In this document: positions 9,505 through 40,345 of the stretch, in pieces
Position numbering within the stretch: the stretch's first letter is position 1
How the letters are laid out: each line of letters starts with the position of its first letter
DNA from: Oscillatoriales cyanobacterium PMM_0019
Lineage (GTDB): Bacteria; Cyanobacteriota; Cyanobacteriia; Cyanobacteriales; CASBRB01
Direction of reading: 5' to 3'
Length of the DNA stretch: 49,435 nt
NCBI GenBank assembly: GCA_949127975.1
Contig: CASBRB010000229.1
Location: 1-49,435 of the forward strand
Translations under genes and position numbers: made by a program
The notes under the pieces: generated by a model
What the model saw: only the letters and a program-made list of their open reading frames with translations
The model's database searches: none
Told to the model about the DNA's origin: nothing

Positions 9505-10785
9505 TTAATTGAATTGACACTCCCCGCTCGTCATAGACGGGGATTCTTGGTTCGCAGAGCGAACTTGCTCATACAGGATTTCTCCTGCAAAAGTAGCGGT
9601 TCCCTCTCCCCAAGCGTTTAATGGGTCATCCCACAAAGTTCCCGTATGCCCTACGGTACTCAATCCACGCCTTAATATGTTGATAGCAGCATTAAAATCT
9701 CGATCTAGTTCACATCCACAAGCACATTTATGGGTGCGAGTACTTAGAGATTTCTTGACAATGGTTCCACATTTTGAACATTCTTGCGACGTATAGTGAG
9801 GTGGCACAGCAATTGTTACTTTCCCCATTTTCTGCCCAAATCGTTCTACCCATTGTCGAAACTGATACCAACCAGCATCATTTATCGATTTAGCAAGGCA
9901 GTGGTTTTTAACTAAATTCCGTACCTTCAAGTCTTCATAGGCTACCAAATCGTTAGACTGGATTACGCAACGCGCCACTCTCTTGGCGTGTTCTTCACGT
10001 TGCCTACTTATTTTGAGGTGCTGTCTTGCTACTCGATTTCTAGCTTTGTGATAATTGCTAGACTGTGGCTGCTTATGAAGCTTCCTTTCTTTACTGTATT
10101 TTCGGGAAAGACGGCGTTGCAGCTTCTTTAACCTTTTCTCCCCTTCGCGATAAAACTTTGGATTTGGTTCTGCATACCCAGTCGAATCAGTGTAAAACGC
10201 TGCGAGTCCAACATCTAACCCAACAGCTCGATTTGTCGGTTCCGTTTCAACCTTGGGCGGTTCTATCTGAATCACAAATTGGCAATAATACCCATCGGCA
10301 CGTTTGACTAAGCGAACTCGCTTAATCCGATCGATCTGGTAATAGTTCAGATCGTATGTGCCAATAAGTTTTAATTTACCAATACCTTTTTTGTCGGTAA
10401 TGGTTATTGCTTTTCTGTTCTCAGATAACTTCCAGCCACTTGTTTTATATTCAACTGACCTGCCATGCTTCCTGAATTGGGGATAACCCAACCCACCCCT
10501 GGGGTGGGTAGCTTTGCAATTGTCAAAGAACCTCTTAATCGCAGACCAGGCTCGTTCCGCTGCTGCTTGACGCGCCATTGAGTTTAGCTCATCAGCAAAT
10601 TTATATTCAGCGGCTAAGACTTTGCAGTATTTATTCAAGTCGTATTGACTAACGTTTTTACCGTCCATCCAGAGTCTAAGGCATTTATTTCTAATAAAAA
10701 GAGCAGTTCGTATCGCCTCTTCTATGGCGACGAACTGCTCTTTTTTGCCCTTGACTTTAAATTCTATGACGGTTGTTGACGACAT
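9505..10785 (-). CDS. tnpB: RNA-guided endonuclease TnpB
   Basis: RuvC triad VGLDVG / AYEDL / DRDFNAAINI intact; CSKC..CACG zinc ribbon. Confidence 0.95.
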   Translation of the reverse strand: MSSTTVIEFKVKGKKEQFVAIEEAIRTALFIRNKCLRLWMDGKNVSQYDLNKYCKVLAAEYKFADELNSMARQAAAERAWSAIKRFFDNCKATHPRGGLGYPQFRKHGRSVEYKTSGWKLSENRKAITITDKKGIGKLKLIGTYDLNYYQIDRIKRVRLVKRADGYYCQFVIQIEPPKVETEPTNRAVGLDVGLAAFYTDSTGYAEPNPKFYREGEKRLKKLQRRLSRKYSKERKLHKQPQSSNYHKARNRVARQHLKISRQREEHAKRVARCVIQSNDLVAYEDLKVRNLVKNHCLAKSINDAGWYQFRQWVERFGQKMGKVTIAVPPHYTSQECSKCGTIVKKSLSTRTHKCACGCELDRDFNAAINILRRGLSTVGHTGTLWDDPLNAWGEGTATFAGEILYEQVRSANQESPSMTSGECQFN

Positions 10786-21845: not shown

Positions 21846-23378
21846 GTGAAATTGTCTGCAAAGGGTATTTATAAAGTCAAACATCAAGCTACAAGCAAGG
21901 GAATCGCACCTAAATATATTTATAATGTAGCGCCATTACCAGATGACGACCATTTTGTCAATAAGCTATTAGTCGCTGCATCTCAGGGTAGTTACAATCT
22001 TAATCTACCACCAGGATGCCCTAGAATACCCTCCTCTATCCAACTGCGGCAGTATCAGCAACAAGCGGTAGCTAGCTGGTTTGCTAATCAAGGGCGAGGC
22101 ACCCTGAAAATGGCTACTGGTAGTGGCAAGACTATCACCGCTCTAGCGATCGCTTCTGCACTTTACCAAAAAATCGGCTTGCAAGTCTTACTCGTCGTCT
22201 GCCCGTTTTGCCATCTAGTCACCCAATGGGGGCGAGAATGCGAAAAATTTGGCATGGCACCAATATTAGCGTTTGAGAATGTACATCACTGGCAAAACCA
22301 ACTCTCTACCCAACTCTACAATGTGCGTTGTGGCACTCAACCGTTTCTTAGCGTTATCACCACCAATGACACCCTGATGAGCGAGGGGCTACAATCTCAA
22401 TTAAAGCATTTCCCAGATAAAGCCTTAATTATTGGAGACGAAGCCCATAACCTGGGGGCAAAGCGTCGGGAAGCAAGTTTACCTCGCAATATTGGGCTGC
22501 GACTAGCTTTATCAGCAACGCCAGAGCGGTATCTTGATGAAGATGGTACCCAATCTTTATTTGATTATTTTGGCGCAGTAATAGATCCTGAGTTTACCCT
22601 AGGAGATGCTATAGCACAAGGTGCCCTAGTACATTACCTCTACTATCCCATTCTAGTCGAGCTTACAGAAGCAGAGAGCCATACATACTTAAAATTAACT
22701 AAAAGTATTGGGAGGGCGCTGCTATTTCGCCAACGAGAAACCCGCTCAGCTAATCTCAGCAACCATGATTATCAAGACTTAACACCATTACTAATGCAGC
22801 GGGCAAGGTTAATCGGAGCGGCTGCTAATAAATTAACCGCGTTGCGCCAGTTAATGAGTACACGCCTAGATACGACGCACACTTTATTTTATTGCGGTGA
22901 TGGTTCTTCTGAAAGCAGCCGCCAACTGCAAGCGGTTACTAAAATGCTGGGTAATGACTTAGGTTACAGAGTAAGCACCTACACCGCCGAGACATCCTTA
23001 TCAGAGCGCGAAGATTTGCGCTGTCAATTTGAAACTGGCGAGTTACAGGGTTTGGTAGCCATTCGCTGTTTAGATGAGGGGGTGGATATTCCAGCCATTC
23101 AGACTGCGGTGATTTTAGCCAGTAGTGGCAACCCACGCCAGTTTATTCAGCGACGGGGGCGAATTTTGCGCCCTTACCCAGGCAAGCAACGCGCACACCT
23201 CTTTGACATGATTGTACTGCCGCCAGAGCTAGACAGGGAAACCTTGGAAGTAGAGCGCAATCTGCTGCGCAAAGAATTGCGGCGCTTTGTAGAGTTTGCT
23301 GACTTGGCTGATAATGCTGGGCAAGCTAGGGTAAAACTGCTAGCGCTGCAAAAAAGATATGGTTTGTTGGATATTTGA
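21846..23378 (+). CDS. SF2 helicase/ATPase of the DNA phosphorothioation-associated 'restriction enzyme' family (TIGR04095-like)
   Basis: LRQYQ Q-motif, MATGSGKT, DEAH, LSATP, CLDEGVDIP, FIQRRGRILR. Confidence 0.85.
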   Translation: MKLSAKGIYKVKHQATSKGIAPKYIYNVAPLPDDDHFVNKLLVAASQGSYNLNLPPGCPRIPSSIQLRQYQQQAVASWFANQGRGTLKMATGSGKTITALAIASALYQKIGLQVLLVVCPFCHLVTQWGRECEKFGMAPILAFENVHHWQNQLSTQLYNVRCGTQPFLSVITTNDTLMSEGLQSQLKHFPDKALIIGDEAHNLGAKRREASLPRNIGLRLALSATPERYLDEDGTQSLFDYFGAVIDPEFTLGDAIAQGALVHYLYYPILVELTEAESHTYLKLTKSIGRALLFRQRETRSANLSNHDYQDLTPLLMQRARLIGAAANKLTALRQLMSTRLDTTHTLFYCGDGSSESSRQLQAVTKMLGNDLGYRVSTYTAETSLSEREDLRCQFETGELQGLVAIRCLDEGVDIPAIQTAVILASSGNPRQFIQRRGRILRPYPGKQRAHLFDMIVLPPELDRETLEVERNLLRKELRRFVEFADLADNAGQARVKLLALQKRYGLLDI

Positions 23379-23417
23379 TATTTGGTGATTGTGCTTTTAT
23401 AGGTGCGTTAACGGTAT

Positions 23418-23496
23418 CAGGACTTACGCAGCTACACTAAATACAGCGGTTCCTAGGGGCAATCCCCCTTTGTGTGCCCAGTGTGCGTAAGTCCTG
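23418..23496. mobile_element. MITE with CAGGACTTACGCA TIRs
   Basis: caggacttacgca...tgcgtaagtcctg. Confidence 0.8.
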
Positions 23497-23558
23497 ATTA
23501 TAACTGTGCCCGCTAGATCGTTTATATTAAAGGTAAAGATGAGTACGGGGTTGGCGGT

Positions 23559-24629
23559 ATGTCAAAGTTGGCAATTGAACAATTTACTCCTGAACAAGAA
23601 GCCTTAATTCCTATCTATAAAGATAAGTGGTGGCAAATAGCTACCTCCACCAAGCGACTCGATCGTCAAAAAGCTACAAAAGTTGTAAAAGCACTATATA
23701 ATTTAAGTGGTAACTCAGTAAAAGAGATTATATTTTTTGATAGCCCTTTTGCAGCTTTTAATAGCATTGAAGTCCTTATACAAATCGAGCATTTTTTAAA
23801 ATTAAATAATAATTCTATAAATAAAAATCTATGTGAGATAGGAACAATTTTTAATAAACTCTGGCTGCGCTTGCAGAAGCTCAGCTACGAATCACCAGTA
23901 TATCAACAATTGATAGAACAAGTAAATTGGCAGATAAGAACCGAATTAACCGGGAGAATGGAAAATGAACTATCAAGGCGAATCGACCACAAATTGTGGC
24001 AGCGATTGGCAGGTAAACCGAGAGTAGGAGGTCAAAGTCGGCTCCAAAATATTTGCATTCAACCTGAAAGGTTAGCTGGGTTTTGTAATTATTTTGATTG
24101 GGATTTTTCTGTGATAAAGGGTGTAGCCGATCGCCAAGAATGGGAAATATTTCAGTCACTGGTTAAAGAGTGTGGTTGGATTATACCTCTGGAAAATGCT
24201 TGTATCATTTGCGAACGCCCCCACATCCTTTCTTTCGACAATCAACAACAACTACATGGGGAAGGCTATCCAGCTATTCAGTTTATTGATGGGTTTAGTA
24301 TCTATGCCTATCATGGTGTAACCTTATCTGAAAAATATGGTCAAGTTCCTCCTTCTCAATGGTGTTCTGAATGGCTATTATCTGAACCTAGCGCTGAAAT
24401 TAGGCGAGTTTTACTTCAAGGAATTAGTTACAACAGGATTTGGCAAAATTTAACAGCTATTGAAATAGATAGTTGGCAAGAATACACTTTACTAAAAGTT
24501 AATAATGATGGCGAATTAGAGCCAACTTATTTACTAAAAATGACCAGCCCTAGTAGCGGTTCTATTCATGTCATCCGTGTACCGCCTAATATTCTCTCGG
24601 CTCGTGAAGCAATTCGTTGGGTACATTAG
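23559..24629 (+). CDS. DUF6745-like cyanobacterial protein, probably C-terminally truncated
   Basis: TPEQEALIP, FFDSP, CIICERP, LHGEGYPAIQF.DG, RVPP...AREAIRWV. Confidence 0.75.
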   Translation: MSKLAIEQFTPEQEALIPIYKDKWWQIATSTKRLDRQKATKVVKALYNLSGNSVKEIIFFDSPFAAFNSIEVLIQIEHFLKLNNNSINKNLCEIGTIFNKLWLRLQKLSYESPVYQQLIEQVNWQIRTELTGRMENELSRRIDHKLWQRLAGKPRVGGQSRLQNICIQPERLAGFCNYFDWDFSVIKGVADRQEWEIFQSLVKECGWIIPLENACIICERPHILSFDNQQQLHGEGYPAIQFIDGFSIYAYHGVTLSEKYGQVPPSQWCSEWLLSEPSAEIRRVLLQGISYNRIWQNLTAIEIDSWQEYTLLKVNNDGELEPTYLLKMTSPSSGSIHVIRVPPNILSAREAIRWVH

Positions 24630-24646
24630 GGACAGGACTTACACAC

Positions 24647-24841
24647 GGGAGCAACGCCAAAAAGTGATATTTAGCGCCAAAAGCCCAATAGCTTTCTCAG
24701 TAAGGGCTAAAGCCCTCACTACGAACTAATTTCCAAGAAAAAGTTAAAGGGCTAAAGCCCTCACGACGAACGAAAAAGTTTGTAGTGAGGGCTTTAGCCC
24801 TCAGTAAGGCTCACGACTTCTCACTTTTTCGCGTTGCTCCC
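24647..24841. mobile_element. MITE with 21-bp GGGAGCAACGC TIRs holding three AGGGCTAAAGCCCT REP hairpins
   Basis: gggagcaacgccaaaaagtga / tcactttttcgcgttgctccc. Confidence 0.8.
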
Positions 24842-24967
24842 AACGAACTCCTACTGCCGCACGATAAAACTGGTAAAACAACGGCGGTAGCCAAAAAAAC
24901 TAGCTTAGGATAGAAGTGAAGCCTTCACCAGATTGCTAGAGTACGAGTACATTATATTTTTCAACCT

Positions 24968-25414
24968 ATGACCTCAGCCAACCATTCTCCTTTTCGACGT
25001 AAAGAAATTCTTCGAGGCATCCTCTCCGTATGTATAATTATAGTGGGGATAACTCACTTTATTAGACCAGATCAGTATGCCAGAATAGTACCACCACCAT
25101 TTCCACCCTTGGCATCCGTATATATTAGTGGGGTTTTTGAGATTTTAGGTGGGATTGGCTTGCTAATTCCATTTGTGAGCGTAGCTGCTGCATGGGGGCT
25201 GATTTCCCTGTTTATTGCCGTGTTCCCTGCTAACATTTACATGACATTACATAATATTGAGCTAGAAGGGATTCCCCATAGCCAAGCCCTTTATATAGCA
25301 AGGCTACCTTTTCAGGCAGTGTTGATTGCCTGGGCTTGGTGGTACACTCGCCATCCAGAGCAGCAGCATGGAGCTTCTAAAGTTGCCGAGGAAGCTAAAA
25401 CACTTAGCCAGTAG
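24968..25414 (+). CDS. DoxX-family membrane protein
   Basis: GITHF..P..Y..IVPP, SGVFEILGG, IAVFPANIYM, RLPFQ. Confidence 0.85.
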   Translation: MTSANHSPFRRKEILRGILSVCIIIVGITHFIRPDQYARIVPPPFPPLASVYISGVFEILGGIGLLIPFVSVAAAWGLISLFIAVFPANIYMTLHNIELEGIPHSQALYIARLPFQAVLIAWAWWYTRHPEQQHGASKVAEEAKTLSQ

Positions 25415-25625
25415 AACTCCTACAGGTTTGTAGGGGCAATCCCCCTGTGGTTGCCCCTATATATGCCCAGTCCAATCGCTTTATAAAAATAGTTCTTCCT
25501 TATCAACTTAAGTATAACAAAAAAAATAACAGGTGTCAAGGGGGGCAGAAAAAATATTTTCCTTTGGATAAACGACGCAGTAACTCGCTAAAATATAGCA
25601 AACTTTAAGGGGCAACGTGGGCGGG

Positions 25626-25799
25626 GTGAGTAACGAAGCCAGTCTGAATGATGTACAACAGCCAATTACAGATGCGCCAGCGGAGGTACGTCAAATTATA
25701 GAGCGGGTGTTACAGGCGGAAAAGGATAAGCTGTATATGAAGAATCCCCGCCATATTAATGACGATATTTTGGCAATAGTGAAGGAAGCAGTACCATGA
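25626..25799 (+). CDS. Small helical protein translationally coupled to the SMC-like ATPase
   Basis: ATGA overlap with the ATPase start; DAPAEVRQIIERVLQAEKDKL; GTG start at 25626 or 25617. Confidence 0.75.
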   Translation: MSNEASLNDVQQPITDAPAEVRQIIERVLQAEKDKLYMKNPRHINDDILAIVKEAVP

Positions 25800-27862
25800 A
25801 GCTTACTTCCATCAAACTATGTAACTTTCGCCAATTTTATGGCAAAACACCAGAAATTCTACTTGCTGCTGGGGAGTCGGGGAATACTACAGTATTTCAC
25901 GGCAACAACGGAGCGGGGAAGACGGGGTTGTTGAATGCCTTTACTTGGGTACTGTATGAAAAGTTTAGTGCAGCTTTTGCCCAATCAGAGCAATTGGTAA
26001 ATAAAAGAGCGATCGCAGAAGCTTTACCAGGAATGGCGGTAGAATGTTGGGTGGAAGTAACATGGGAGCACGACTGCAAAAGCTACCGAGCTAAACGCGA
26101 GTGCCGTGCCTATAAAGGCGAAACCATCGAGTCGGGCGAAAGTCGGTTGTATATGCAGATAGCAGGGGATGATGGGCGCTGGGCACTGCCGCGAGAGCAA
26201 CCTGAAGATATCATTGGGAGAATTTTGCCAGAGAGCCTGCATCAGTATTTCTTTTTTGATGGCGAGCGGATTGAGCAGATAGTACGCTCTGACAAGAAAG
26301 CTGAAATTGCCGAAGCTACCAAGAAGCTCCTAGGGGTAGAAATATTAAGTCGAGCTATCAGACATCTAGGGGAAGTAAAGAAAACCCTAGAGAAAGAGTT
26401 GGAAGCAATCGGGGATATTCAGACGAAGAAGCTTTTAACCAAGAAAGAGGCAGTAGAGCAGGAAACTGAGCGACTATTCCAGCGACAAGCTGAGATTGCC
26501 CAGGAGTTGTCACATCAACAGACGCTAAAAAAAGATATCAGTAACAGATTAAGTGAGCTTAGTCGTGCTAAAGAGTTGGAAGAAAGACGCCAACAGCTAG
26601 AAGCCCAGCAAGCATCAAACCGAGAAGCCCTGAAGAAAAGTAAAGTAACACTCAAAAGAGCGATCGCTACTCAAGCATACACGGTTTTACTCTGTGAAGC
26701 AACAACTCAGTTTAGAGGAATAGTAGATGATTTGAGGCAGAAAGGCGAATTACCTATAGGCATAGAGCGGCAGTTTGTCAATGACTTACTCACACAGCAC
26801 CGATGTATTTGTGGGGGAGAGCTAATAGAGGATACTCCAGCTTACGATAACGTCAGTAGTTGGCTGGATAAAGCAGGGATAGCAGTAGTCGAGGAAACAG
26901 CTATCCGCATGAGTGCTCAAGTTGACGAAATAAACAAGCAAGCCGAAGCCTTTTGGGGAGAGATTGACACAGAGCAAGTCAATATCAATCAGGTAAGGCA
27001 AGTAATATCTCAGATAGAGACGCAACTGGATAATATCAGAGAACAGTTAAGAAGAGATCCTAGCGAAGAAATAAGGAATTTGCAAAAGCGACTGGATGAG
27101 ATTGAAGCCAAAATCCGGGAGCTAACCCTAGAAGAAGGGGAAAACCAGCAGAAAATCGCCGACAGTAAAACCGAAGCCGAGAATTTAGGCAAGCAAATCG
27201 CCAAACATGAGATGAATGAGGCAAGGCAGGTACTAGCCCAGCGACGGATTGCCACCGCCCAGGATGCAGTTGAGCGGTTAACAGAAGTGCGCTCGCGCAT
27301 GGATAAACAATTTCGCTTGCAATTAGAAAAGCGAGTGCAAGAGATATTTAGTGAAATTTCATTTACTCCCTACATTCCCAAGCTCACCGAGAAATACGAA
27401 TTGACACTGGAAGAGAATACCGCAGGGCAACCCACGCAAGTACCTGCTTCTACGGGGGAAAACCAAATTCTCAGTTTATCCTTTATCGGCGGAATTATTG
27501 ACAGGGTACGGGAGTGGAGTGCCAAGGAAATGTTAATGGTGCCAGATACCAGCACCTTTCCCCTGGTGATGGATTCGCCATTTGGGAGTTTAGATGAAAT
27601 ATATCGACGCCAAATAGCCAAGATACTGCCCAGATTAGCGAATCAGTTAATTATTTTAGTCACTAAAACCCAGTGGCGGGGGGAAGTAGCCACAGAAATG
27701 GAAAATCATATAGGTAGGGAGTATGTCTTGACTTATTACTCTTCTAAGTTAGATTGCGAACAAGATGCTATAGAATTAAGTGGAATTCGCTATCCTTTGG
27801 TGAAACAAAGCCCGAATGAGTTTGAGTATACCGAGATTCTAGAGGTGAATTATGATTTCTAG
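25796..27862 (+). CDS. SMC/Rad50-like coiled-coil ABC ATPase (DndD-related, CxC hinge)
   Basis: GNNGAGKT, FFFDGERI, central CICG, STGENQ signature, VMDSPFGSLD. Confidence 0.88.
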   Translation: MKLTSIKLCNFRQFYGKTPEILLAAGESGNTTVFHGNNGAGKTGLLNAFTWVLYEKFSAAFAQSEQLVNKRAIAEALPGMAVECWVEVTWEHDCKSYRAKRECRAYKGETIESGESRLYMQIAGDDGRWALPREQPEDIIGRILPESLHQYFFFDGERIEQIVRSDKKAEIAEATKKLLGVEILSRAIRHLGEVKKTLEKELEAIGDIQTKKLLTKKEAVEQETERLFQRQAEIAQELSHQQTLKKDISNRLSELSRAKELEERRQQLEAQQASNREALKKSKVTLKRAIATQAYTVLLCEATTQFRGIVDDLRQKGELPIGIERQFVNDLLTQHRCICGGELIEDTPAYDNVSSWLDKAGIAVVEETAIRMSAQVDEINKQAEAFWGEIDTEQVNINQVRQVISQIETQLDNIREQLRRDPSEEIRNLQKRLDEIEAKIRELTLEEGENQQKIADSKTEAENLGKQIAKHEMNEARQVLAQRRIATAQDAVERLTEVRSRMDKQFRLQLEKRVQEIFSEISFTPYIPKLTEKYELTLEENTAGQPTQVPASTGENQILSLSFIGGIIDRVREWSAKEMLMVPDTSTFPLVMDSPFGSLDEIYRRQIAKILPRLANQLIILVTKTQWRGEVATEMENHIGREYVLTYYSSKLDCEQDAIELSGIRYPLVKQSPNEFEYTEILEVNYDF

Positions 27863-27873
27863 TTTATCTACAA

Positions 27874-28050
27874 CAGGACATACGCACTGCCCCTAAATAT
27901 AGGGTTAGTAGGGGCAATCCCCCTGTGGTTGCCCCTATATATAGCGGGTGGTAGGGGCAATCCCCCCGTGGTTGCCCCCTACATATAGCGGGTGGTAGGG
28001 GCAATCCCCCCGTGGTTGCCCCTATATATGCTAAAGTCCTCACTACGAAC
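27874..28050. repeat. MITE end, three tandem GTAGGGGCAA REP units and a partial GTAGTGAGG REP
   Basis: caggacatacgca, then (gtaggggcaatccccc..gtggttgcccc) three times. Confidence 0.88.
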
Positions 28051-28069
28051 TATAACAAATATTAATTCA

Positions 28070-28537
28070 ATGGGTGCCAACAGAATCAAAATTGCTAAAG
28101 ATAAAGCTGACTTGGTGAAAGTCTTGACAGCATCAGATGACACCACTGGAGTTTTCCAGACTTATGTAGAGGTTATGGTGTTTGCGGCTGGATTAGGATC
28201 AAAGCGGAAAAAGCGGGTGCCATTAGCAGGAGTTTCTAAAGATTTAGAACCAATTCGACTAGAGTATTTTGAAAACCATAAATATGACTTGGTAATTAAT
28301 TTGCTAGCTGTTTCTGAAGTCAAAGAGCATAATATATTAGCTGATGATGAAAAACTGGAGGAGCAACGGATTAAAATATTTGAAGAATACGCCAATGCTG
28401 GATTAGAAATATTACAGCAAGAATTGCGGGGAGCAGTAGACTATTCTGAGCAAATTTTATTGCTTCTTAGTTCGGAAAGATTTCAGCAAGAGCAGTCAGA
28501 AGAGGAGTTTGATTTAAGCAAATTTCTCTCTAAATAA
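28070..28537 (+). CDS. DNA phosphorothioation (dnd)-associated protein 4 family (TIGR04062-like)
   Basis: MGANRIKIAKDKADLVK..FQTY..MVFAA.LG, IFEEYANAGLEIL; real start is ATG 28070. Confidence 0.82.
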   Translation: MGANRIKIAKDKADLVKVLTASDDTTGVFQTYVEVMVFAAGLGSKRKKRVPLAGVSKDLEPIRLEYFENHKYDLVINLLAVSEVKEHNILADDEKLEEQRIKIFEEYANAGLEILQQELRGAVDYSEQILLLLSSERFQQEQSEEEFDLSKFLSK

Positions 28538-32674: not shown

Positions 32675-35600
32675 ATGGTAATCACACAATCTGACTTAGA
32701 ACAAATTATTGCCCAAGCTAGCTTTATATCAGAACGTCTCTCCACATCTTTTTCAAAACTTAAAAACGATGAGGCGTTCAAAATTGATACCACCGCAGTT
32801 AGTCAACAGCAAGTTAGCGACGAGCGACTAGCCCGCTGGTGTCACGTAGTTGCCCAAGGAAACTGGGAAAAATTTCACAAGCGGCTACAATGGGATGGGT
32901 TAGATATCGACACAGTACGCCCGATACTAGGCTCTTACTCTTTTGAGTATACTGGAGAAGCCCAGGAAATGCCAACCTGGGGGGAAACTTTGAGGGAGAT
33001 TATTCAATCTGCCACGGAATTAGACTTGCAGGATAAAACAAACATCCCCCGTGAACCGGAAAATCCGGTGCCGTTTGAAGATGTGTTGTTGCCTGCTGTA
33101 TTAGTGGCACGGCAGAAATTACTAACTGCATTGGATTCTCCTTCATTATCCCCAGACAGCTTACCCTTGGCATTGCTGACGGAAGCAGCCTACAAAAAAT
33201 TAGAACACAGCCTGCTAGAAAGGCTAGTGCAAATCTGCGGGAAAACTTTAGACTTTGAATTTACTCATTCGCGTCCCCTGGGGCACAACTTGCTCAGTCT
33301 GCTGATAGGAGAAACCCAAGAAAATAGCACAGATGGATACAACGCCTTTGTTGATAAATTATTACAGGATGGGCTATTGACATTTTTCCAGAAATACCCA
33401 GTGCTGGGCAGGTTAATGGCAACTGCTATTGACTTGTGGGTAGAAGTAACAGCGGAATTGTTGCAACGTATCCAGGCTGATTTATCCGAAATTCAGCAAA
33501 TATTCAGTCAACAGTCAACAATCAACAAAGTTACTGAAATCAAAACTTCTTTATCAGATCCCCATAATCGAGGGCGTTCTGTAACTATACTAACATTCGA
33601 TTCTGGGTTAAAGCTCGTCTACAAACCTAAGAATATCGGGTTAGAAGTTGCCTATAACCAGTTTTTAGAATGGTGCAATCAGCAAATAAACAATTCTCCC
33701 CCTCTTTTCTTCAAAATAATCAAGATAATCAATCGGGAAACTTACGGCTGGGTGGAATATGTAGAGCATCTGCCCTGTGAAGATGAAGCAGCAGCAGAGC
33801 GCTTCTATCAGCGGGCGGGAAAGTTGTTGTGCCTGCTGTATTTTTTGAGAACAACTGACTGTCACCGTGAAAATTTAATAGCTAGTGGTGAACATCTGGT
33901 GTTAATTGATATGGAAACCCTGATGCACCATGAAGCTAATTCATTTGGCAACCCCCTAGGAGAGACAACCACCCAGACGGTTTTGACTCAACAGCTCTAC
34001 AATTCAGTTTTGCGTACAGGAATCTTGCCCAGTTGGGAGATTAATCGAGATAACGAAGTTGCTTACGATATTAGTGGCTTAGGCAGCGTCGAGGCACAGC
34101 AAACACCCAGACGTAGTTGGCGCTGGAAATCAATCAATACAGATGATATGCGACTGAGTTACGATAATTTTACAGTACCATTAGAAAAAAATAGTCCAAT
34201 TTTGAATGGAGTACCCCTGTCACCTAATGACTACCTTGACAGTATAGTCGCAGGGTTTAAGCAGATGTACCACTTCCTGCTAGAGCAGCGACAAACGCTG
34301 CTAGCAGAAGATTCACCATTGGCAGCATTCTCAGCACAGCGCGTGAGGTTTGTTTTCCGCCCTACTAAAATTTACTTTTTGGTTTTAAACAAATCTTTTG
34401 CCCCTGAATTTCTTAAAAATGGGGTAGACTGGAGCATAGAACTAGAAGCTATGAGTCGGGCTTTTCTCACACCCCCACATAAACCTTATAATTGGTCAGT
34501 ATGTGGCAGCGAACTCAGCGCCATGCAGCAGTTGGATATTCCCTACTTTGCAGCATCCTCTGACAGCGATGTTCTCAGCTATGGGGTGATGTCACCTATT
34601 GAACATTTTTTTAAAAAACCCAGCTACAGCCAAGTCATAACCCAGCTAGCATCTCTCGATGAAACAGATTTAGCTCGACAAGTTGCCTTGATTCAGGGGG
34701 CTTTTTATGCTAGAGTAGCGCGGCAACCTGGAAGTATTACAGAATCGGATACCGAGAGTACGACGCTCGAAGAAGCTGATTTTTCCCAAGTCTGTGCTTT
34801 AACTGTTGAACAATTGCTTGGGCAAGCTAGTCAGATTGCCCAAGATATTCAGGCACGGGCGATTAAAGAAACCGATGGCAGTGTAAACTGGATTGGCTTA
34901 AGTTATATTCCCAAGGTCGAGCGGTTCCAACTCATGCCCTTGGGCGATAACTTCTATGATGGTAGTTGTGGGATTGCCTTATTTCTGGCAGCTTTGGATT
35001 ATGTAAAGGGCAACAGCGAATTCCGGCACCTAGCTTTAGGAGCAATACATTCCTTACGTCAATTCTTACAGAAAGCTAAACCTGAAGACCTGCAAGAATT
35101 TGCTCAAGTGGGAATTGGTGGAGCTGCGGGACTTGGTTCTATAATATATTGTCTAGTGAAGATGAGTCAATTCCTTCAGGAAACAGAGCTTTTAGCAGAC
35201 GCCCAGAAATTTGCCAACTTAATTACTCCCGAACTGATAGCCAGCGATAAGGACTTGGACATAGTCAAGGGAGCAGCAGGAGCAATCTTGGGGCTATTGG
35301 CACTTTATAATGAAACCAAGGATGGGGCAGTTTTAGATAAAGCGGTAATCTGCGGACAGCATCTGGTGGAGCATCAAATGAGTAGTGAAGATGGTATTGG
35401 AGCGTGGAAAACCTTTGCCCAAAAGCCATTAACAGGTTTTTCTCATGGAGCCGCTGGCATTGCCTACTCCTTGCTAAGACTATATAAAGTAACACAACAA
35501 GACGCCTTTTTAAAAGTAGCGAGTGAAGGAATTGCTTACGAGCGTAGTGTATTTGAGCCCAGTGTCGCTAATTGGCCAAATTTTATAGTGTCTGGCGATT

Positions 35601-36031
35601 CTGAAAATGTAACCCCAGGTTTTATGGTGAGCTGGTGTCATGGCGCACCTGGGATTGGCTTAGGGAGGCTGGGCGGTTTATCTATATTAGATACTGATGA
35701 AATTCGTCAAGACATAGAAGCAGCATTACTGACTACAAAGAATTACAACTGGCAAGGTGTAGCTCATCTGTGCTGCGGGCAATTTGGCAGAATAGAAATG
35801 CTGCTGGTGGCTGCTCAGAAGCTTCAGCGGAAAGAATTGCGAGACATCGCTCAACTAAGGGCTGCTTGGGTGATAGCCAACGCTTCAAAAACAGGAGCAT
35901 TCAAACTATTTCTTAACTTGCCATCAGAAGTATTCATCCCCTGTTTCTTTCAGGGAAATGCAGGCATTGGCTACGAGTTGCTGCGGTTAGCGAAGCCAGA
36001 GGTACTACCCTCAGTGCTATTATGGGAATAA
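32675..36031 (+). CDS. lanM: Class II lanthipeptide synthetase
   Basis: Dehydratase motifs KLVYKP, YGWVEYV, TDCHRENLI, IDMETL, RPTKIY; cyclase motifs GFSHGAAG, WCHGAPG, LCCG. Confidence 0.96.
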   Translation: MVITQSDLEQIIAQASFISERLSTSFSKLKNDEAFKIDTTAVSQQQVSDERLARWCHVVAQGNWEKFHKRLQWDGLDIDTVRPILGSYSFEYTGEAQEMPTWGETLREIIQSATELDLQDKTNIPREPENPVPFEDVLLPAVLVARQKLLTALDSPSLSPDSLPLALLTEAAYKKLEHSLLERLVQICGKTLDFEFTHSRPLGHNLLSLLIGETQENSTDGYNAFVDKLLQDGLLTFFQKYPVLGRLMATAIDLWVEVTAELLQRIQADLSEIQQIFSQQSTINKVTEIKTSLSDPHNRGRSVTILTFDSGLKLVYKPKNIGLEVAYNQFLEWCNQQINNSPPLFFKIIKIINRETYGWVEYVEHLPCEDEAAAERFYQRAGKLLCLLYFLRTTDCHRENLIASGEHLVLIDMETLMHHEANSFGNPLGETTTQTVLTQQLYNSVLRTGILPSWEINRDNEVAYDISGLGSVEAQQTPRRSWRWKSINTDDMRLSYDNFTVPLEKNSPILNGVPLSPNDYLDSIVAGFKQMYHFLLEQRQTLLAEDSPLAAFSAQRVRFVFRPTKIYFLVLNKSFAPEFLKNGVDWSIELEAMSRAFLTPPHKPYNWSVCGSELSAMQQLDIPYFAASSDSDVLSYGVMSPIEHFFKKPSYSQVITQLASLDETDLARQVALIQGAFYARVARQPGSITESDTESTTLEEADFSQVCALTVEQLLGQASQIAQDIQARAIKETDGSVNWIGLSYIPKVERFQLMPLGDNFYDGSCGIALFLAALDYVKGNSEFRHLALGAIHSLRQFLQKAKPEDLQEFAQVGIGGAAGLGSIIYCLVKMSQFLQETELLADAQKFANLITPELIASDKDLDIVKGAAGAILGLLALYNETKDGAVLDKAVICGQHLVEHQMSSEDGIGAWKTFAQKPLTGFSHGAAGIAYSLLRLYKVTQQDAFLKVASEGIAYERSVFEPSVANWPNFIVSGDSENVTPGFMVSWCHGAPGIGLGRLGGLSILDTDEIRQDIEAALLTTKNYNWQGVAHLCCGQFGRIEMLLVAAQKLQRKELRDIAQLRAAWVIANASKTGAFKLFLNLPSEVFIPCFFQGNAGIGYELLRLAKPEVLPSVLLWE

Positions 36032-36064
36032 CTGACGATTAAGAATCGGGAACGGGGAACAGAT

Positions 36065-36294
36065 TTCTCGTTCCCAGGATGTGCCTGGGAATGCTGTGTG
36101 GAGGCAGACTTACGCGCACTGGGCACGCACAGGGGGTTTGCCCCTACTCACCCGCTATATATAGAGGCAGTAGTTGTAGTTGTAGTAGGTTGGGTAGAGC
36201 GATCGCGAAACCCAACATAAACCCACAGGGGTGATGTTGGGTTTCGTTCCTCAACCCAACCTACAAATATAGCAACCGCCTTGGCGGTTGCTTA
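36065..36294. repeat. Composite repeat block (CTCGTTCCC hairpin, MITE fragment, REPIN pair, AGCAACCGCC palindrome)
   Basis: Segments match the repeats at about 3706, 5846 and 29305; agcaaccgccttggcggttgct at 36271-36292. Confidence 0.75.
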
Positions 36295-36325
36295 CAATTG
36301 AATAAGTAGAACGGACAAAAATAGT

Positions 36326-37030
36326 GTGACACCAGAAAAAGTCAAGTTTGGACAACAGGTAGTCAATAAATTCATTGAGATGATCTTGGCGAGGATGATC
36401 GATGCTGAACTATGCCAAGTCCGCGTCAGAGCCAATCTCAAGCAATTAGCTCGTGGCGAACTCGATGGGCTGACTATCGAAATGTATGGTTTTAGGCTGC
36501 GTCAACACTTGCGAGTTACAGAATTTCGGTTCGATATTGGGGAAGCGGCGGTTAACATTCAAAGCATCATGCGCCGACAAATCGAACTACTGCATCCCTC
36601 AGAAGGCACTTTGCTCTTGGTGGTTACTCAAGAGCAGTTAACCAGTGTACTAAACTCCCTGAATGTATCTCCATCAGACGAACATCTTGAGCCAAAGAAG
36701 AGGCAGGTCAACTGTCAGCTAGGGGAAGATGGCGCAATGGTATTCCACTTTGAATGGATATATGCTGGAGAAATTGCATCTGGAAGTTGCACCGTCATAC
36801 CGCTTCTTAAAGCAGATGGTTCTGGAGTTGTGCTGAACCAAGGAAATAGGTCGGGCAAGGAACCACCTGACGAATTTGTTAGAGCAGTAAGCACCCAAGT
36901 AAGCGACATCTTGAGCCTAAGTGACATTGCTAATCTTGGGACAACTTTTCACTTTGAAAAGATTGATATCACAGCAGGTAAGATAACGGTACGAGCCACT
37001 ACCCATATCGAGCATTTTCCCAAAGTTTAA
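36326..37030 (+). CDS. LmeA/DUF2993-family phospholipid-binding protein
   Basis: GQQVVNK..E..L..MIDAE..QVRV...LARGELDGL.I, IELLHPSEG.L.LV.T. Confidence 0.75.
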   Translation: MTPEKVKFGQQVVNKFIEMILARMIDAELCQVRVRANLKQLARGELDGLTIEMYGFRLRQHLRVTEFRFDIGEAAVNIQSIMRRQIELLHPSEGTLLLVVTQEQLTSVLNSLNVSPSDEHLEPKKRQVNCQLGEDGAMVFHFEWIYAGEIASGSCTVIPLLKADGSGVVLNQGNRSGKEPPDEFVRAVSTQVSDILSLSDIANLGTTFHFEKIDITAGKITVRATTHIEHFPKV

Positions 37031-37087
37031 TCTAACAAAGAATTGGCTCTTTGGTACTTGTTATGCTAGAGCAACAGTTGATGGGTC

Positions 37088-37114
37088 GGGAACAGGGAAC
37101 AGGGAACAGGGAAC
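37088..37114. repeat. Heptamer tandem repeat (GGGAACA, STRR type)
   Basis: gggaaca three times plus gggaac. Confidence 0.8.
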
Positions 37115-38184
37115 GAGAAAATGGTTTGATTTCAGGCGTAGGAATTTTCAACCCTGACAGGCCGATAAGATTGTGTAGTCCTCTTGAGCGAGGACTTTAG
37201 CTATTAGCCTCTGGTTTAAACCAGAGGCGGGCTGTCGGATAATTTTTACCCCTATTATATTTTAAAAAATTTTCACCATCTGATGTTGGGTTTCGTTCCT
37301 CAACCCAACCTACAACTACAACTGGCTCTATATATAGCGGGTTCGTAGGGGCAAACCCCCTGTGGTTGCCCCTATATATGCCAGTATGCTACAGTACTGT
37401 TTAAAAAAAATCACCATCTGGGAGAGGGGAGTAAGAGTCGGAATTTCTTCTATTTCTCCCCTTCTCCCTTGATGGGAGAAGGGGTTGGGGGATGAGGGTG
37501 ATAACTTAGGTCTGGCGTACAATATGTTTAAGATACTTGATGAACGAGTCCCGATCGATCATTACTTTTGTGCTAATATTATTAAATTTCTATTACATTT
37601 TAGCATACTAAGTACGAAAGACCCGGATTGTCTGAGCGCGGCTGGGCAGTTTTCTCGTTCCGGTGGCTCTGCCTGGGAATGCTGTTTGTCGGCAGAGCCG
37701 ACAAGCCTTCGTTCCGGTGGCTCCTGCCTGGGAACGAGAAGAAAGGTTACGAAGTCATAAAGATGCCAAAGGATTCGATATTACTGGCTTTCCTCTATCT
37801 TAATAGATAAATCATAAGGCATAGTTAGAATAGAATTACACTTTTCAATCACCCTTCAACGATTTTAAAGAGAGCTATCTCTTGAGCCTGTACTTAAAAC
37901 TGATATAACCGTAAAACCTACCCTTAATAACAGGATAACAGAAATTGTTCTCAGTATTTACACGTATCAACATAGTATAATTACGTAGATTTAACTCCTT
38001 TTACTGGTTGATAAGTGGGGTATATACATAGATATTAATACACTTATCAAAAGTTTGATGCTAGTGGCTGTGGATGCTAAATAATCAAAAAAATCTTTAA
38101 AATTCAGTAGTTTCTCCAATGACGTTTTAAAAATAAACGGTGAAGATAAATATAGAGACAAGAAAAAAATTAAGGATTAAGCAA

Positions 38185-38529
38185 ATGTTCGGCCAAAAGA
38201 ATTGGAACCAATTTCTACAAATATTACAACAAGACCGCCAAGCTCAAGACAGTCTGAAGAAAGCGACAGACCAAGAAGGCTTTGTGAATCTGGCAGTTCA
38301 ACTGGGTAAACAAAAAGGCTTCAATTTCACCAGCAAAGATTTGAAAGCAATGCTTGCTCAAGCTCTAGCTCCAATCTCTGAAGAGCTTAGTGACGATGAA
38401 TTAGCGTGCGTGGCAGGAGGAGGAGACAACGACGACAAACCAAAAAATACACATAAGAACTGTGGCGTTGGTGGAACGTGCTATAATCATACATGTTGTG
38501 TTACTGGTGACCAGGCATATACTCTTTAG
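38185..38529 (+). CDS. lanA: Nif11-leader lanthipeptide precursor (79-aa leader, 35-aa core)
   Basis: Nif11-like leader ending EELSDDELACVAGG; core GDNDDKPKNTHKNCGVGGTCYNHTCCVTGDQAYTL; AAGGA RBS before ATG 38185. Confidence 0.9.
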   Translation: MFGQKNWNQFLQILQQDRQAQDSLKKATDQEGFVNLAVQLGKQKGFNFTSKDLKAMLAQALAPISEELSDDELACVAGGGDNDDKPKNTHKNCGVGGTCYNHTCCVTGDQAYTL

Positions 38530-38757
38530 GGGTATAAATCTTGGCAGTTTTCACCATCATTGAAATTACAATGACTGGGCAAATAATTGACTTAACTTCA
38601 GATTTTGGATGTTAGATTGTGATGAATTTTACAGCGAATTAACCCCTGGATTTATCCAGGGGCTAGTAAGAACAAAATCGACTTTTTAAAAACTGTCAAT
38701 TTTAAATTTGAAATCAAAGCTTTGGTGGTATATATTGATAGGGAGCATGTGTTAGAG

Positions 38758-40044
38758 ATGAAAAATATTAAATCAGCGATCGCTATCCTTAGCGCCCTCA
38801 CACTTAATCTTGTGACTCTCCAAAGTACCACAGCACAATCGGCTGCTAAAAGATACATAGTGGTTTTCAAAGAAAACCCTGTCACTGATGTTGATTCTGT
38901 GGTTCAGGAACACACTAGGCTTTATGCTTTGCCTGAGGTTACTCATACTTATAAACGTGTTTTGAAAGGATATGCGGCTCTCCTGCCAGACGCTCTCGTG
39001 ACAATGCTTAAAAACGATCCGAGGGTTGACTTTATTTCTCCAGACTATCCCGTTAAAGCTGTGGGACAGACACTACCAGAAGGTGTACAGCGGATTGGAG
39101 GAAATCTCAGTAGTGGCAAGTCTGGAAGCGGCCAGGGTTCTGTTAATACACCTATAGCGATAATTGATTCAGGGATTCAAGTTAACCATCCCGACCTCAA
39201 TGTAGTTGGGGGTCATAACTGTGTAGGTAAGGGAACAAGCTATAATGATGGTTACGGTCATGGCACTCATGTAGCTGGCACCGCAGCCGCTAAGGATAAC
39301 ACCATTGGCGTTGTTGGGGTAGCACCTGGTGCGCCACTGTACGCAGTTCGAGTTTTAGACAACACAGGAAATGGAAGTTGGTCTAATCTTATTTGCGGTG
39401 TGGATTGGGTGACAACTAACAGCGCTAGCACCGGAATCAAAGTTGCCAATATGAGTCTGGGTGGAGTTAACTCCTCTGATGATGGCAATTGCGGTAATAC
39501 CAACAAGGACGCGCTACACCAAGCTATATGTAAGTCTGTGGCTGCTGGCATTACTTATGTAGCTGCTGCTGGAAACAATTCTCAGGACTTTTCTAATTTT
39601 ACACCCGCAGCATATAGCGAAGTTCTCACCGTAACAGCAATGGCTGATTTTAATGGTAAACCAGGAGGTGGTGCAGCTTCCACCTGTGGGAGCGATACCA
39701 CTGATGCGGATGATTTTGCTGCTTCATTCAGCAATTTCGCTACTATTGGCACCAGTAATGTCAATCACACCATTGCCGCACCAGGTGCATGTATCGAATC
39801 TACTTGGCTCAGTGGTGGCTATCTTAGCATTTCCGGTACGAGCATGGCTTCACCCCACGTAGCTGGAACGGTGGCTGTGTGCATTGCTTCTAGTAAGTGT
39901 GCAGGTAAGACACCGCAACAAATCATCAGTAAACTACGGAGCGATGCCGCTGCACAACCGATAACTTACGGTTTTCAGGGCGATCCGAACTCACCTATCG
40001 GCACCCATTACTATGGTCCTCTGGTGTATACAGGGAATTACTAG
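38758..40044 (+). CDS. Secreted subtilisin-like S8 serine protease with I9 prodomain
   Basis: Signal peptide, RYIVVFK prodomain, triad IAIIDSG / HGTHVAG / GTSMASPHVAG. Confidence 0.93.
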   Translation: MKNIKSAIAILSALTLNLVTLQSTTAQSAAKRYIVVFKENPVTDVDSVVQEHTRLYALPEVTHTYKRVLKGYAALLPDALVTMLKNDPRVDFISPDYPVKAVGQTLPEGVQRIGGNLSSGKSGSGQGSVNTPIAIIDSGIQVNHPDLNVVGGHNCVGKGTSYNDGYGHGTHVAGTAAAKDNTIGVVGVAPGAPLYAVRVLDNTGNGSWSNLICGVDWVTTNSASTGIKVANMSLGGVNSSDDGNCGNTNKDALHQAICKSVAAGITYVAAAGNNSQDFSNFTPAAYSEVLTVTAMADFNGKPGGGAASTCGSDTTDADDFAASFSNFATIGTSNVNHTIAAPGACIESTWLSGGYLSISGTSMASPHVAGTVAVCIASSKCAGKTPQQIISKLRSDAAAQPITYGFQGDPNSPIGTHYYGPLVYTGNY

Positions 40045-40054
40045 GTTAAGGAGA

Positions 40055-40345
40055 GGGGCAACCACAGGGGGATTGCCCCTACACCGGAGCCTTCACCCTC
40101 ATCCCCCAACCCCTTCTCCCATCAAGGGAGAAGGGGAGAAAGAGAAAACCATCAAACCATCCGACTCTTACTCTCCTCTCCCGGCTCCCCCCTTCCGGCT
40201 CCCCTCCTGGGAGGGGCGAGGGGTGGGTAGGACTGGGGTGAGAGCCATTTACAGAGCCTAAGGGGAGGGCAACCACAGGGGGATTGCCCCTACACTGGAG
40301 CCTAAGGGGAGGGGCAACCACAGGGGGATTGCCCCTACGCCGGAG
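40055..40345. repeat. Three GTAGGGGCAA REPs (minus strand) and CCCC-type hairpin repeats
   Basis: gggcaaccacagggggattgcccctac three times; ccccttctccc..gggagaagggg. Confidence 0.85.

Follow-up and report, generated by a model that had tools for sequence, protein, structure and literature searches.

A predicted ProcM-like class II lanthipeptide locus with a Nif11 precursor and a downstream subtilisin gene in Oscillatoriales cyanobacterium PMM_0019

Genes at the locus

We analysed a predicted class II lanthipeptide locus of Oscillatoriales cyanobacterium PMM_0019 that lies on contig CASBRB010000229.1 (C229); the window, i.e. the whole stretch of DNA analysed, is this entire contig of 49,435 bases, and the source genome has 5.74 Mb in 512 contigs and is 96% complete. 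The gene content of the window, like the named homologues of its genes, is cyanobacterial. An initial annotation, made from the sequence letters, had placed a synthetase gene (lanM), an LmeA-like gene, a Nif11 precursor gene (lanA) and an S8 subtilisin gene on one strand, and four + strand open reading frames indeed fill positions 32675-40044. We consider it reasonably probable that the locus belongs to an ordinary cyanobacterial ProcM-like class II ("cyanotin") system, the parts of which are scattered across the genome. Its coding features are:

32675..36031, + strand: lanM, class II lanthipeptide synthetase of 1118 residues, ProcM-like (CCG); TIGR03897, DUF4135 and LANC_like
36326..37030, + strand: LmeA/DUF2993-like gene, 234 residues; PF11209 (E 2.5e-13), Atlas LmeA clusters
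38185..38421, + strand: lanA leader, Nif11-type, 79 residues, ending in EELSDDELACVAGG; TIGR03798 above cut-off
38422..38529, + strand: lanA core, 35 residues and stop; Thr10, 19, 24, 28 and 34, Cys14, 20, 25 and 26, no Ser
38758..40044, + strand: S8 subtilisin, 428 residues, I9 propeptide; probable ATG 38758, stop 40044

An intact synthetase and a Nif11 precursor with an unmatched core

The lanM product scored 1028 bits on TIGR03897 (cut-off 304) and aligned with LicM2 (E 2e-85) and CylM (E 1e-52). A motif scan located the dehydratase motifs YKPK (316), TDCHREN (394), IDMET (411) and RFVFRPT (558) and the cyclase/zinc motifs GFSHG (921), WCHG (987) and LCCG (1032), which points to a bifunctional enzyme with intact motifs in its dehydratase and LanC-like cyclase domains; the catalytic residues are those that we take to be equivalent to the residues assigned in CylM. 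A near-identical LanM is intact in other assemblies (1117 of 1118 residues identical). The CCG zinc-ligand motif marks ProcM-like LanMs (PMC10783134), and its CCG at 1032 places the window LanM in this ProcM-like/cyanotin subgroup.

The lanA product (114 residues; probable ATG 38185, stop 38529) scored 38.2 bits on TIGR03798 (cut-off 32.3); its start codon has AGGA upstream, and a 114-residue protein with the same start is present in the sequence collection. The leader ends with Leu at -12, Leu at -7, Val at -4 and Gly at -2 and -1, together with an unusual Cys at -5. Hydrophobic residues at -12, -7 and -4 and the Gly-Gly motif are the positions read by the C39 domain LahT150 (PMC6363468), and with Leu, Leu and Val before Gly-Gly the lanA leader fits the substrate motif of NHLP/Nif11-type peptidase-containing ATP-binding cassette (ABC) transporters. 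The core opens with a linear charged nonamer, nine unmodifiable residues preceding the first Thr, and since it lacks Ser all of its rings would be methyllanthionines. Its computed monoisotopic mass is 3728.57 unmodified, 3656.53 with four and 3638.52 with five dehydrations.

The initial annotation had recognised no relative of the product, and this was borne out. A word-index search gave two candidates and returned only the lanA protein itself. With phmmer, 1.84 billion representatives yielded 265 matches at E<=0.001, of which the 150 listed match mainly the leader; among the 149 homologues listed, most align over the leader only and none over the whole core. After 25 of the 149 were dropped (more than 200 residues or no GG motif found), no core resembling that of lanA was present among the 124 parsed cores of the nearest leader homologues, the first 59 viewed in full and the remainder screened by motif counts. 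In cyanotins, by definition, the Nif11 leader is conserved and the core varies freely (PMC7268733), and the lanA sequence is consistent with that pattern. The class II lanthipeptide assignment is thus supported by an intact LanM and a nearby precursor with a Gly-Gly site and a Thr/Cys core; very probably the C229 LanM modifies the lanA product, with the reaction and ring pattern predicted from the intact enzyme and the suitable core.

The precursor had been described as single, which holds at the locus; genome-wide there is a second short GG-type candidate on contig C138, so that the two LanMs of this assembly face one clear precursor and a possible second one, lanA being the only Cys-rich GG-type Nif11 precursor found. 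The C138 candidate (G000:C138:324-521, L242) has a short acidic leader with Leu-12, Leu-7, Ile-4 and GG and a 16-residue core with two Ser, one Thr and two Cys, without a Pfam or NCBIfam match. Downstream of this candidate comes a TPS-domain gene sharing 59% identity (561 aligned residues) with the TPS gene that follows the window subtilisin.

The second LanM, also intact and of CCG type, is encoded at C498:10605-13979 (L008; TIGR03897 1008 bits, ~60% identical to the window LanM). Its gene lies 235 bp from the contig end, no precursor was found on C498, and no contig-end overlap joins C498 to C138.

Layout of the locus

The intergenic segments between these genes are:

36061..36296, no strand: short palindromic repeats in the spacer from lanM to the LmeA-like gene; families D3, D5 and D12, up to 515 overlapping blastn hits genome-wide
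37048..37757, no strand: repeat-rich spacer between the LmeA-like gene and lanA; up to 714 overlapping blastn hits
38530..38757, + strand: short gap without repeats between lanA and the S8 gene, the sole repeat-free one among five gaps around the locus

Since 2.15 kb, the LmeA-like gene and two gaps full of genome-wide repeats separate lanM from lanA, the two do not form a tight operon. From lanA to the S8 gene on the same strand there is a repeat-free gap of 228 bp. This gap is a weak sign of linkage, as repeats are likewise missing from 408 of the 712 co-directional gaps of 100-300 bp that the genome has. Logan contigs from four runs cover the genes of the locus, and one contig spans lanA and the S8 gene together; in runs X2 and X3 the contig breaks inside the core and is uninformative. 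No Logan contig bridges the repeat gaps, the contigs breaking in the spacer 37048..37757, so the adjacency of lanM and lanA rests on this assembly. No RNA run holding the locus was found among the sequencing runs listed, and a promoter/terminator scan gave counts within ~1 standard deviation of shuffles (18 versus 14.4; 10 versus 8.3).

This loose layout raises the question of a decaying remnant, in which lanM and lanA became neighbours by rearrangement, or the peptide is modified by the LanM of C498, or is not made. The distance, the unrelated gene, the unbridged repeat-rich gaps and the presence of a second intact LanM without a precursor on its own contig are what such a remnant would leave; yet both genes are intact, near-identical intact copies of LanM and of the subtilisin (427 of 428 residues) exist in other assemblies, and the one Cys-rich GG-type Nif11 precursor found in the genome sits 2 kb from a lanM. 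Moreover, of 38 other cyanobacterial lanM loci collected for comparison, 21 have Nif11 or NHLP precursors next to lanM (one locus is from G296 and one from a Nostoc plasmid; the other 36 came from searching 401 genomes, 39 of which matched, the better-scoring places being fetched). We regard a remnant as improbable.

The short palindromic repeat families occur in hundreds of copies, in intergenic DNA of the window for example at 27894-28029, 36061-36296, 37108-37514 and 40047-40343, and are present in 43-78% of non-divergent intergenic gaps >100 bp. An inverted repeat (I2) around lanA and the S8 gene was considered as a cassette boundary and rejected, as it falls within genome-wide repeat segments.

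The LmeA-like gene is probably a bystander to the peptide pathway, judging from gene neighbourhoods. Around LmeA orthologues (47-65% identity) none of 14 loci had a LanM, precursor, C39 or S8 gene within ~1.5 kb each side (six of the 14 and one further orthologue were read at 17-19.5 kb), and none of 37 lanM stretches contained an LmeA-like gene. Genome G024 carries an LmeA orthologue ~17 kb from lanM on one contig, with unrelated genes between, and a LanM match was absent in three of the four other LmeA-orthologue genomes. With unrelated neighbourhoods and 0/37 lanM stretches, the gene was rejected as a part of the pathway.

Leader removal and export

The initial annotation had stressed the lack of a LanT transporter, which holds for the window, none of the 34 window proteins scanned having a PF03412/C39 domain, and fails for the genome, where TIGR03796, TIGR03797 and TIGR03794 genes lie elsewhere. 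The check that it had proposed, a genome search for LanT/HlyD, thus recovered a full NHLP-type set on C300 and C262. The genome encodes four C39-domain proteins; the C39-ABC protein of C300 scored 1149 bits on TIGR03796 (cut-off 853) and adjoins a TIGR03797 partner (981 bits, cut-off 709), and the HlyD protein of C262 scored 382 bits on TIGR03794 (cut-off 156). The C39 Cys/His/Asp motifs are intact on C300 and also on C418. Haft 2010 (PMC2887384) linked TIGR03794, TIGR03796 and TIGR03797, as a set of transporter families, to NHLP and Nif11 precursors, and the genome encodes a complete export set of this type, with its C39 triad present, outside the window. Together with the C39 motif of the leader this intact-looking set supports export in trans, which the annotation had named as an alternative, and cleavage and export of the lanA product by the C300/C262 system are likely, judged from the genes and the motif.

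Neither is the local absence remarkable for cyanobacteria. No C39 gene was present in the stretch for 23 of the 38 lanM loci (16 of the 28 with >=6 kb both sides), nor in four of six further loci. Some loci have C39 just outside the stretch, at 8-17 kb (G567, G588), and in five genomes assembled into 1-5 contigs lanM lies 0.8-2.4 Mb from the only above-cut-off TIGR03796 gene listed (G574, G210, G292, G087, G064). Wang 2011 (PMC3140520) had 9 of 16 lanM genes standing alone, without associated machinery, and proposed that the MIT9313 LanM uses distant transporter clusters. By this base rate and that publication, an absent local LanT is ordinary and already published. Two observations sit less easily with export in trans: the HlyD gene does not adjoin the ABC pair, and seven lanM genomes without C39 by lanM had no above-cut-off TIGR03796 match (e.g. 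G016, G285, G401, G170, G254), so a transporter in trans is not universal.

The initial annotation had named leader removal by the S8 enzyme as one possibility; the S8 would then remove the whole Nif11 leader, with no C39 enzyme involved. There are precedents, since the S8 protease CcaF removes a long NHLP leader in dehydrazoles (PMC10676384) and CylA and LicP are able to take off complete leaders in vitro. Against this, the C39 motif of the lanA leader is complete, and the genome retains an entire NHLP transporter set, for which it has few other substrates; a secreted S8 enzyme would meet the peptide only after export, itself needing a C39-type transporter; and the S8 is not a LanP, as set out below. 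We consider leader removal by the S8 alone very improbable, and a new leader-removal route deduced from the lack of LanT was rejected, given transporter genes in the genome and the frequency of local absence.

At C300:7120-26779 (L243, L244) the NHLP ABC pair stands beside TPS, ShlB, CHAT/TPR, DUF928, CHAT-CHASE2 and DUF1822 genes, a neighbourhood like that of the Nostoc plasmid lanM cluster L108 (CHAT, DUF1822, haemagglutinin, CHASE2), which hints at a broken-up cluster.

The subtilisin lies outside the LanP clade

The S8 protein had been called secreted; a signal-peptide-like N-terminus and the I9 propeptide are present, and secretion is predicted from the N-terminal sequence. Its triad is D149/H180/S374 with oxyanion N285 (numbered from TTG 38722). 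The family is large (4651 matches at E<=1e-50, from Actinomycetota, Chloroflexota and a few cyanobacteria) and is present in 6 of 400 genomes of the order. In a PDB sequence search the best matches were Bacillus subtilisins, with no LanP among the best 60 of 167.

In a tree of 32 rows the S8 grouped with 17 family members (18-row clade, 99/98), apart from five cluster-encoded LanPs (100/100); long branches and compositional bias were flagged, the root is midpoint only, and the LanP reference set consisted of CylA and four annotated, uncharacterised Bacillus cluster S8s, with no NisP, EpiP or LicP sequence. Consistently with this grouping, identity was 24-32% to the five LanPs versus 56-67% to its own family, and the S8 has neither SLG[ST]YK nor the long insert before the catalytic Ser, both seen in four aligned LanPs (features taken from our own alignment, not a published definition). 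A model of the mature domain built from 117 sequences reached a pLDDT of 95.7, a first model from 20 sequences having been unusable (42.5). It was closest to pro-subtilisin E (Z 38.7, root-mean-square deviation 2.0, 265 aligned, 42% identity), with EpiP at Z 32.7, NisP 32.6, LicP 30.1 and the cytolysin protease 29.1; in the fold ranking subtilisin E came first, EpiP 14th, NisP 19th and LicP 27th. By tree, motifs and fold the S8 was rejected as a LanP. On sequence and model, it is of the general subtilisin type, outside the LanP clade, and probably, not certainly, a bystander.

A paralogue at C278:3733-5394 (L011), 58% identical, has a long Pro-Ser repeat insert near its C-terminus.

Is the subtilisin linked to the peptide pathway?

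The proposed synteny check of S8 homologues versus lanM found 0 of 28 family genes near lan genes, that is, no LanM, precursor or C39 around 27 genes (28 stretches, 329 kb), nor by the G716 copy, in a set that does not include the neighbourhood of the nearest orthologue; divergent precursors may escape the hidden Markov models used, which we built ourselves from cyanobacterial loci. None was found around 68 more distant S8 loci (522 kb). A LanM match was absent in five of six cyanobacterial carriers of the S8, the sixth having LanM on another contig. No lan neighbour or precursor stands beside the C278 paralogue, which belongs to the starred subclade of the window S8, and no S8 lies within 1.5 kb each side in 39 other Nif11 loci. 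An S8 of LanP type that removes the leader or trims the peptide, as the initial annotation had suggested, is therefore unsupported by phylogeny, motifs, fold ranking and synteny, and a dedicated role for the window S8 seems rather unlikely.

Several observations weigh the other way. Ten of the 28 S8 stretches are <5.3 kb. P0273, a member of the nearest S8 cluster (68% identical), and P0272 are each listed on a JGI metagenome contig of 160,091 bases, and because both contigs have this length they are very likely one and the same; by our own estimate, chance co-location of the two would be ~3% for a 6-Mb genome. P0272 is a Nif11 precursor with a Thr/Cys core, 48% identical to lanA over 94 aligned residues. 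Its best match is the window lanA (84 versus 53 bits for the best other genome) and that of P0273 is the window S8 (627 versus 460 bits for the best other genome), in reverse scans of 391 and 351 genomes, respectively. S8 genes occur in 3 of 37 lanM stretches versus an expectation of 0.63-0.79 (P 0.03-0.05), given 242 S8 genes in 207 Mb; these S8s belong to subfamilies that are not related to one another, related loci do not count as independent, and no further case came from six loci read later. One lies at L082:4686-7902, where three NHLP precursors are followed 260 bp on by an S8 gene on the same strand, divergent from lanM; this S8 belongs to a different, distant subfamily. Finally, the lanA core shares its initial Gly-Asp with GDVQAE and GDMEAA, segments that two-step maturation cuts off, and the general subtilisin AprE removes GDMEAA from mersacidin (PMC8581636). 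Lying outside the LanP clade is thus compatible with trimming, since AprE trims mersacidin (PMC8581636).

These points would be in keeping with a two-step maturation, in which a C39 transporter in trans would remove the leader and export the modified core, and the S8, recruited beside lanA, would trim the charged N-terminal segment outside the cell in the manner of AprE, so that the core protected by its rings is left. The unmodifiable nine residues before the first Thr, the 228-bp repeat-free gap spanned with both genes by one Logan contig, the mutual nearest matches of P0272 and P0273 to the locus in the genomes searched, the mild excess of S8 near lanM and the precedents (AprE with mersacidin; an S8 gene in the group IV lanM cluster of Fischerella sp. 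PCC 9605, PMC4558948) fit such a scheme. However, adjacency of P0272 and P0273 was not seen, and no LanM is listed on a 160,091-base contig among the 120 representatives or 19 LanM clusters opened. For three other S8s of the P0003 cluster the contigs measure 2.5-4.3 kb, none equal in size to the contig of any listed precursor, and no relative carrying the same precursor-S8 pair was found in the genomes searched. Cutting off six residues would place the cleavage site before Pro, the only residue that NisP refuses at P1'. The Gly-Asp start is weak evidence, being shared by 7 of 124 related cores, and the P0272 core begins differently. The C278 paralogue of the same starred subclade without a precursor, and the 39 other Nif11 loci without an S8, also argue against it. 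Among the papers found, which included few subscription papers and no supplements, none tested an S8 on a cyanobacterial Nif11 lanthipeptide. We regard two-step maturation as unlikely, and equally doubtful the corresponding idea of a conserved two-gene unit of precursor and non-LanP subtilisin in a small cyanobacterial lineage, the subtilisin trimming the exported peptide after the C39 cut.

A papain-like C1 protease gene stands directly behind lanM at L079:7378-8253 and L089:7175-8062, both without C39 nearby; as a recruited lanthipeptide protease it looks a better candidate than the window S8.

Proposed pathway and relation to known systems

In the cyanotin-type system that we favour, LanM would bind the Nif11 leader, dehydrate up to five core Thr and, using the four Cys, form as many as four methyllanthionine rings. 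The NHLP-type transporter, consisting of the C39-ABC protein and its partner ABC protein (C300) and HlyD (C262), would then cut after Gly-Gly and export the product in trans, yielding a polycyclic peptide of ~3.65 kDa. The S8 would be a general secreted subtilisin, not needed as a dedicated maturation enzyme.

The locus resembles ProcM/prochlorosin and cyanotin (family II 26) systems in its CCG LanM, its Nif11 leader running to Gly-Gly (PMC2887384, PMC7268733, PMC10783134), its hypervariable Cys/Thr core and the presence of TIGR03794/03796/03797 in a genome where parts are not always clustered. Unlike those systems as described in these texts, it has one precursor by its LanM where they have many, a longer core (35 residues) with Thr only and four Cys, for which no sequence match was found, and a subtilisin gene directly downstream. 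It shares a lanM without local transporter with the stand-alone group IV loci (9 of 16) of Wang 2011 (PMC3140520), and an S8 gene near a cyanobacterial lanM with the Fischerella sp. PCC 9605 group IV cluster (PMC4558948), for whose S8 that text reports no function. Like nostolanthin (nlt, Nostoc punctiforme; bioRxiv 10.64898/2026.08.14.744816), the locus combines a Nif11 leader and LanM with a His..(S/T)-Cys-Cys stretch in the core, and has one dehydratable residue more than possible rings; in contrast, its core misses (S/T)HxHxSCCxDCP, and nlt comprises two precursor genes and, close by, three transporter genes. With cytolysin (CylB and CylA), lichenicidin (LicT and LicP) and mersacidin (MrsT and AprE) it has in common a Gly-Gly leader, a Gly-Asp core start and an available secreted S8 (PMC10885120, PMC8581636); it differs in that its S8 lies outside the LanP clade and a hexapeptide cut would be before Pro, and the AprE-type (general subtilisin) route is the only analogue left.

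The role of the product as a secreted signal or surface-acting peptide is a guess by analogy, made because nostolanthin, the nearest characterised analogue with a His..Cys-Cys core, had no antibacterial activity and was linked to host association (bioRxiv 10.64898/2026.08.14.744816). Under the cyanotin-type reading, the locus would contribute one more unmatched core, with as many as four interlocked methyllanthionine rings, to the cyanobacterial Nif11 lanthipeptides, a large group most of which is uncharacterised; this addition is unsurprising and is easily tested, with one LanM and one LanA. If the subtilisin did trim the peptide, a general protease would have been recruited independently into a lanthipeptide pathway of cyanobacteria. 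This would be the first two-step maturation found for a cyanobacterial Nif11 lanthipeptide, with a new tetra-methyllanthionine scaffold, and the native molecules could then differ from products that are expressed in E. coli and cleaved with LahT150.

Other observations

Further lanM loci and the rest of the window held features of separate note. Nif11 precursors with the nostolanthin motif are present in L075 and in L228; the latter lies in G024, outside the family holding most lanM matches, and has no C39 gene in the stretch read. In L099 and L100 lanM stands beside six Nif11-like precursors without core Cys, the NHLP transporter being 0.8 and 1.9 Mb off. At L081:1966-19901 a lanM without detected precursor lies among methyltransferase genes and genes that we read from their sequence as resembling non-ribosomal peptide synthetases and polyketide synthases. 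A JmjC-domain gene lies between the precursors and lanM at L078:4845-6089, with a similar gene start in L230, and HopA1-family and kinase-like genes lie upstream of lanM at L098:11763-14234. In the window itself, 21846-28537 carries genes associated with DNA phosphorothioation, namely a TIGR04095 helicase above cut-off, dnd-associated protein 4 and a DndD-like protein below cut-off (167 versus 246 bits), and 9505-10785 encodes an IS605-type TnpB (OrfB_IS605 and Cas12f1-like domain).

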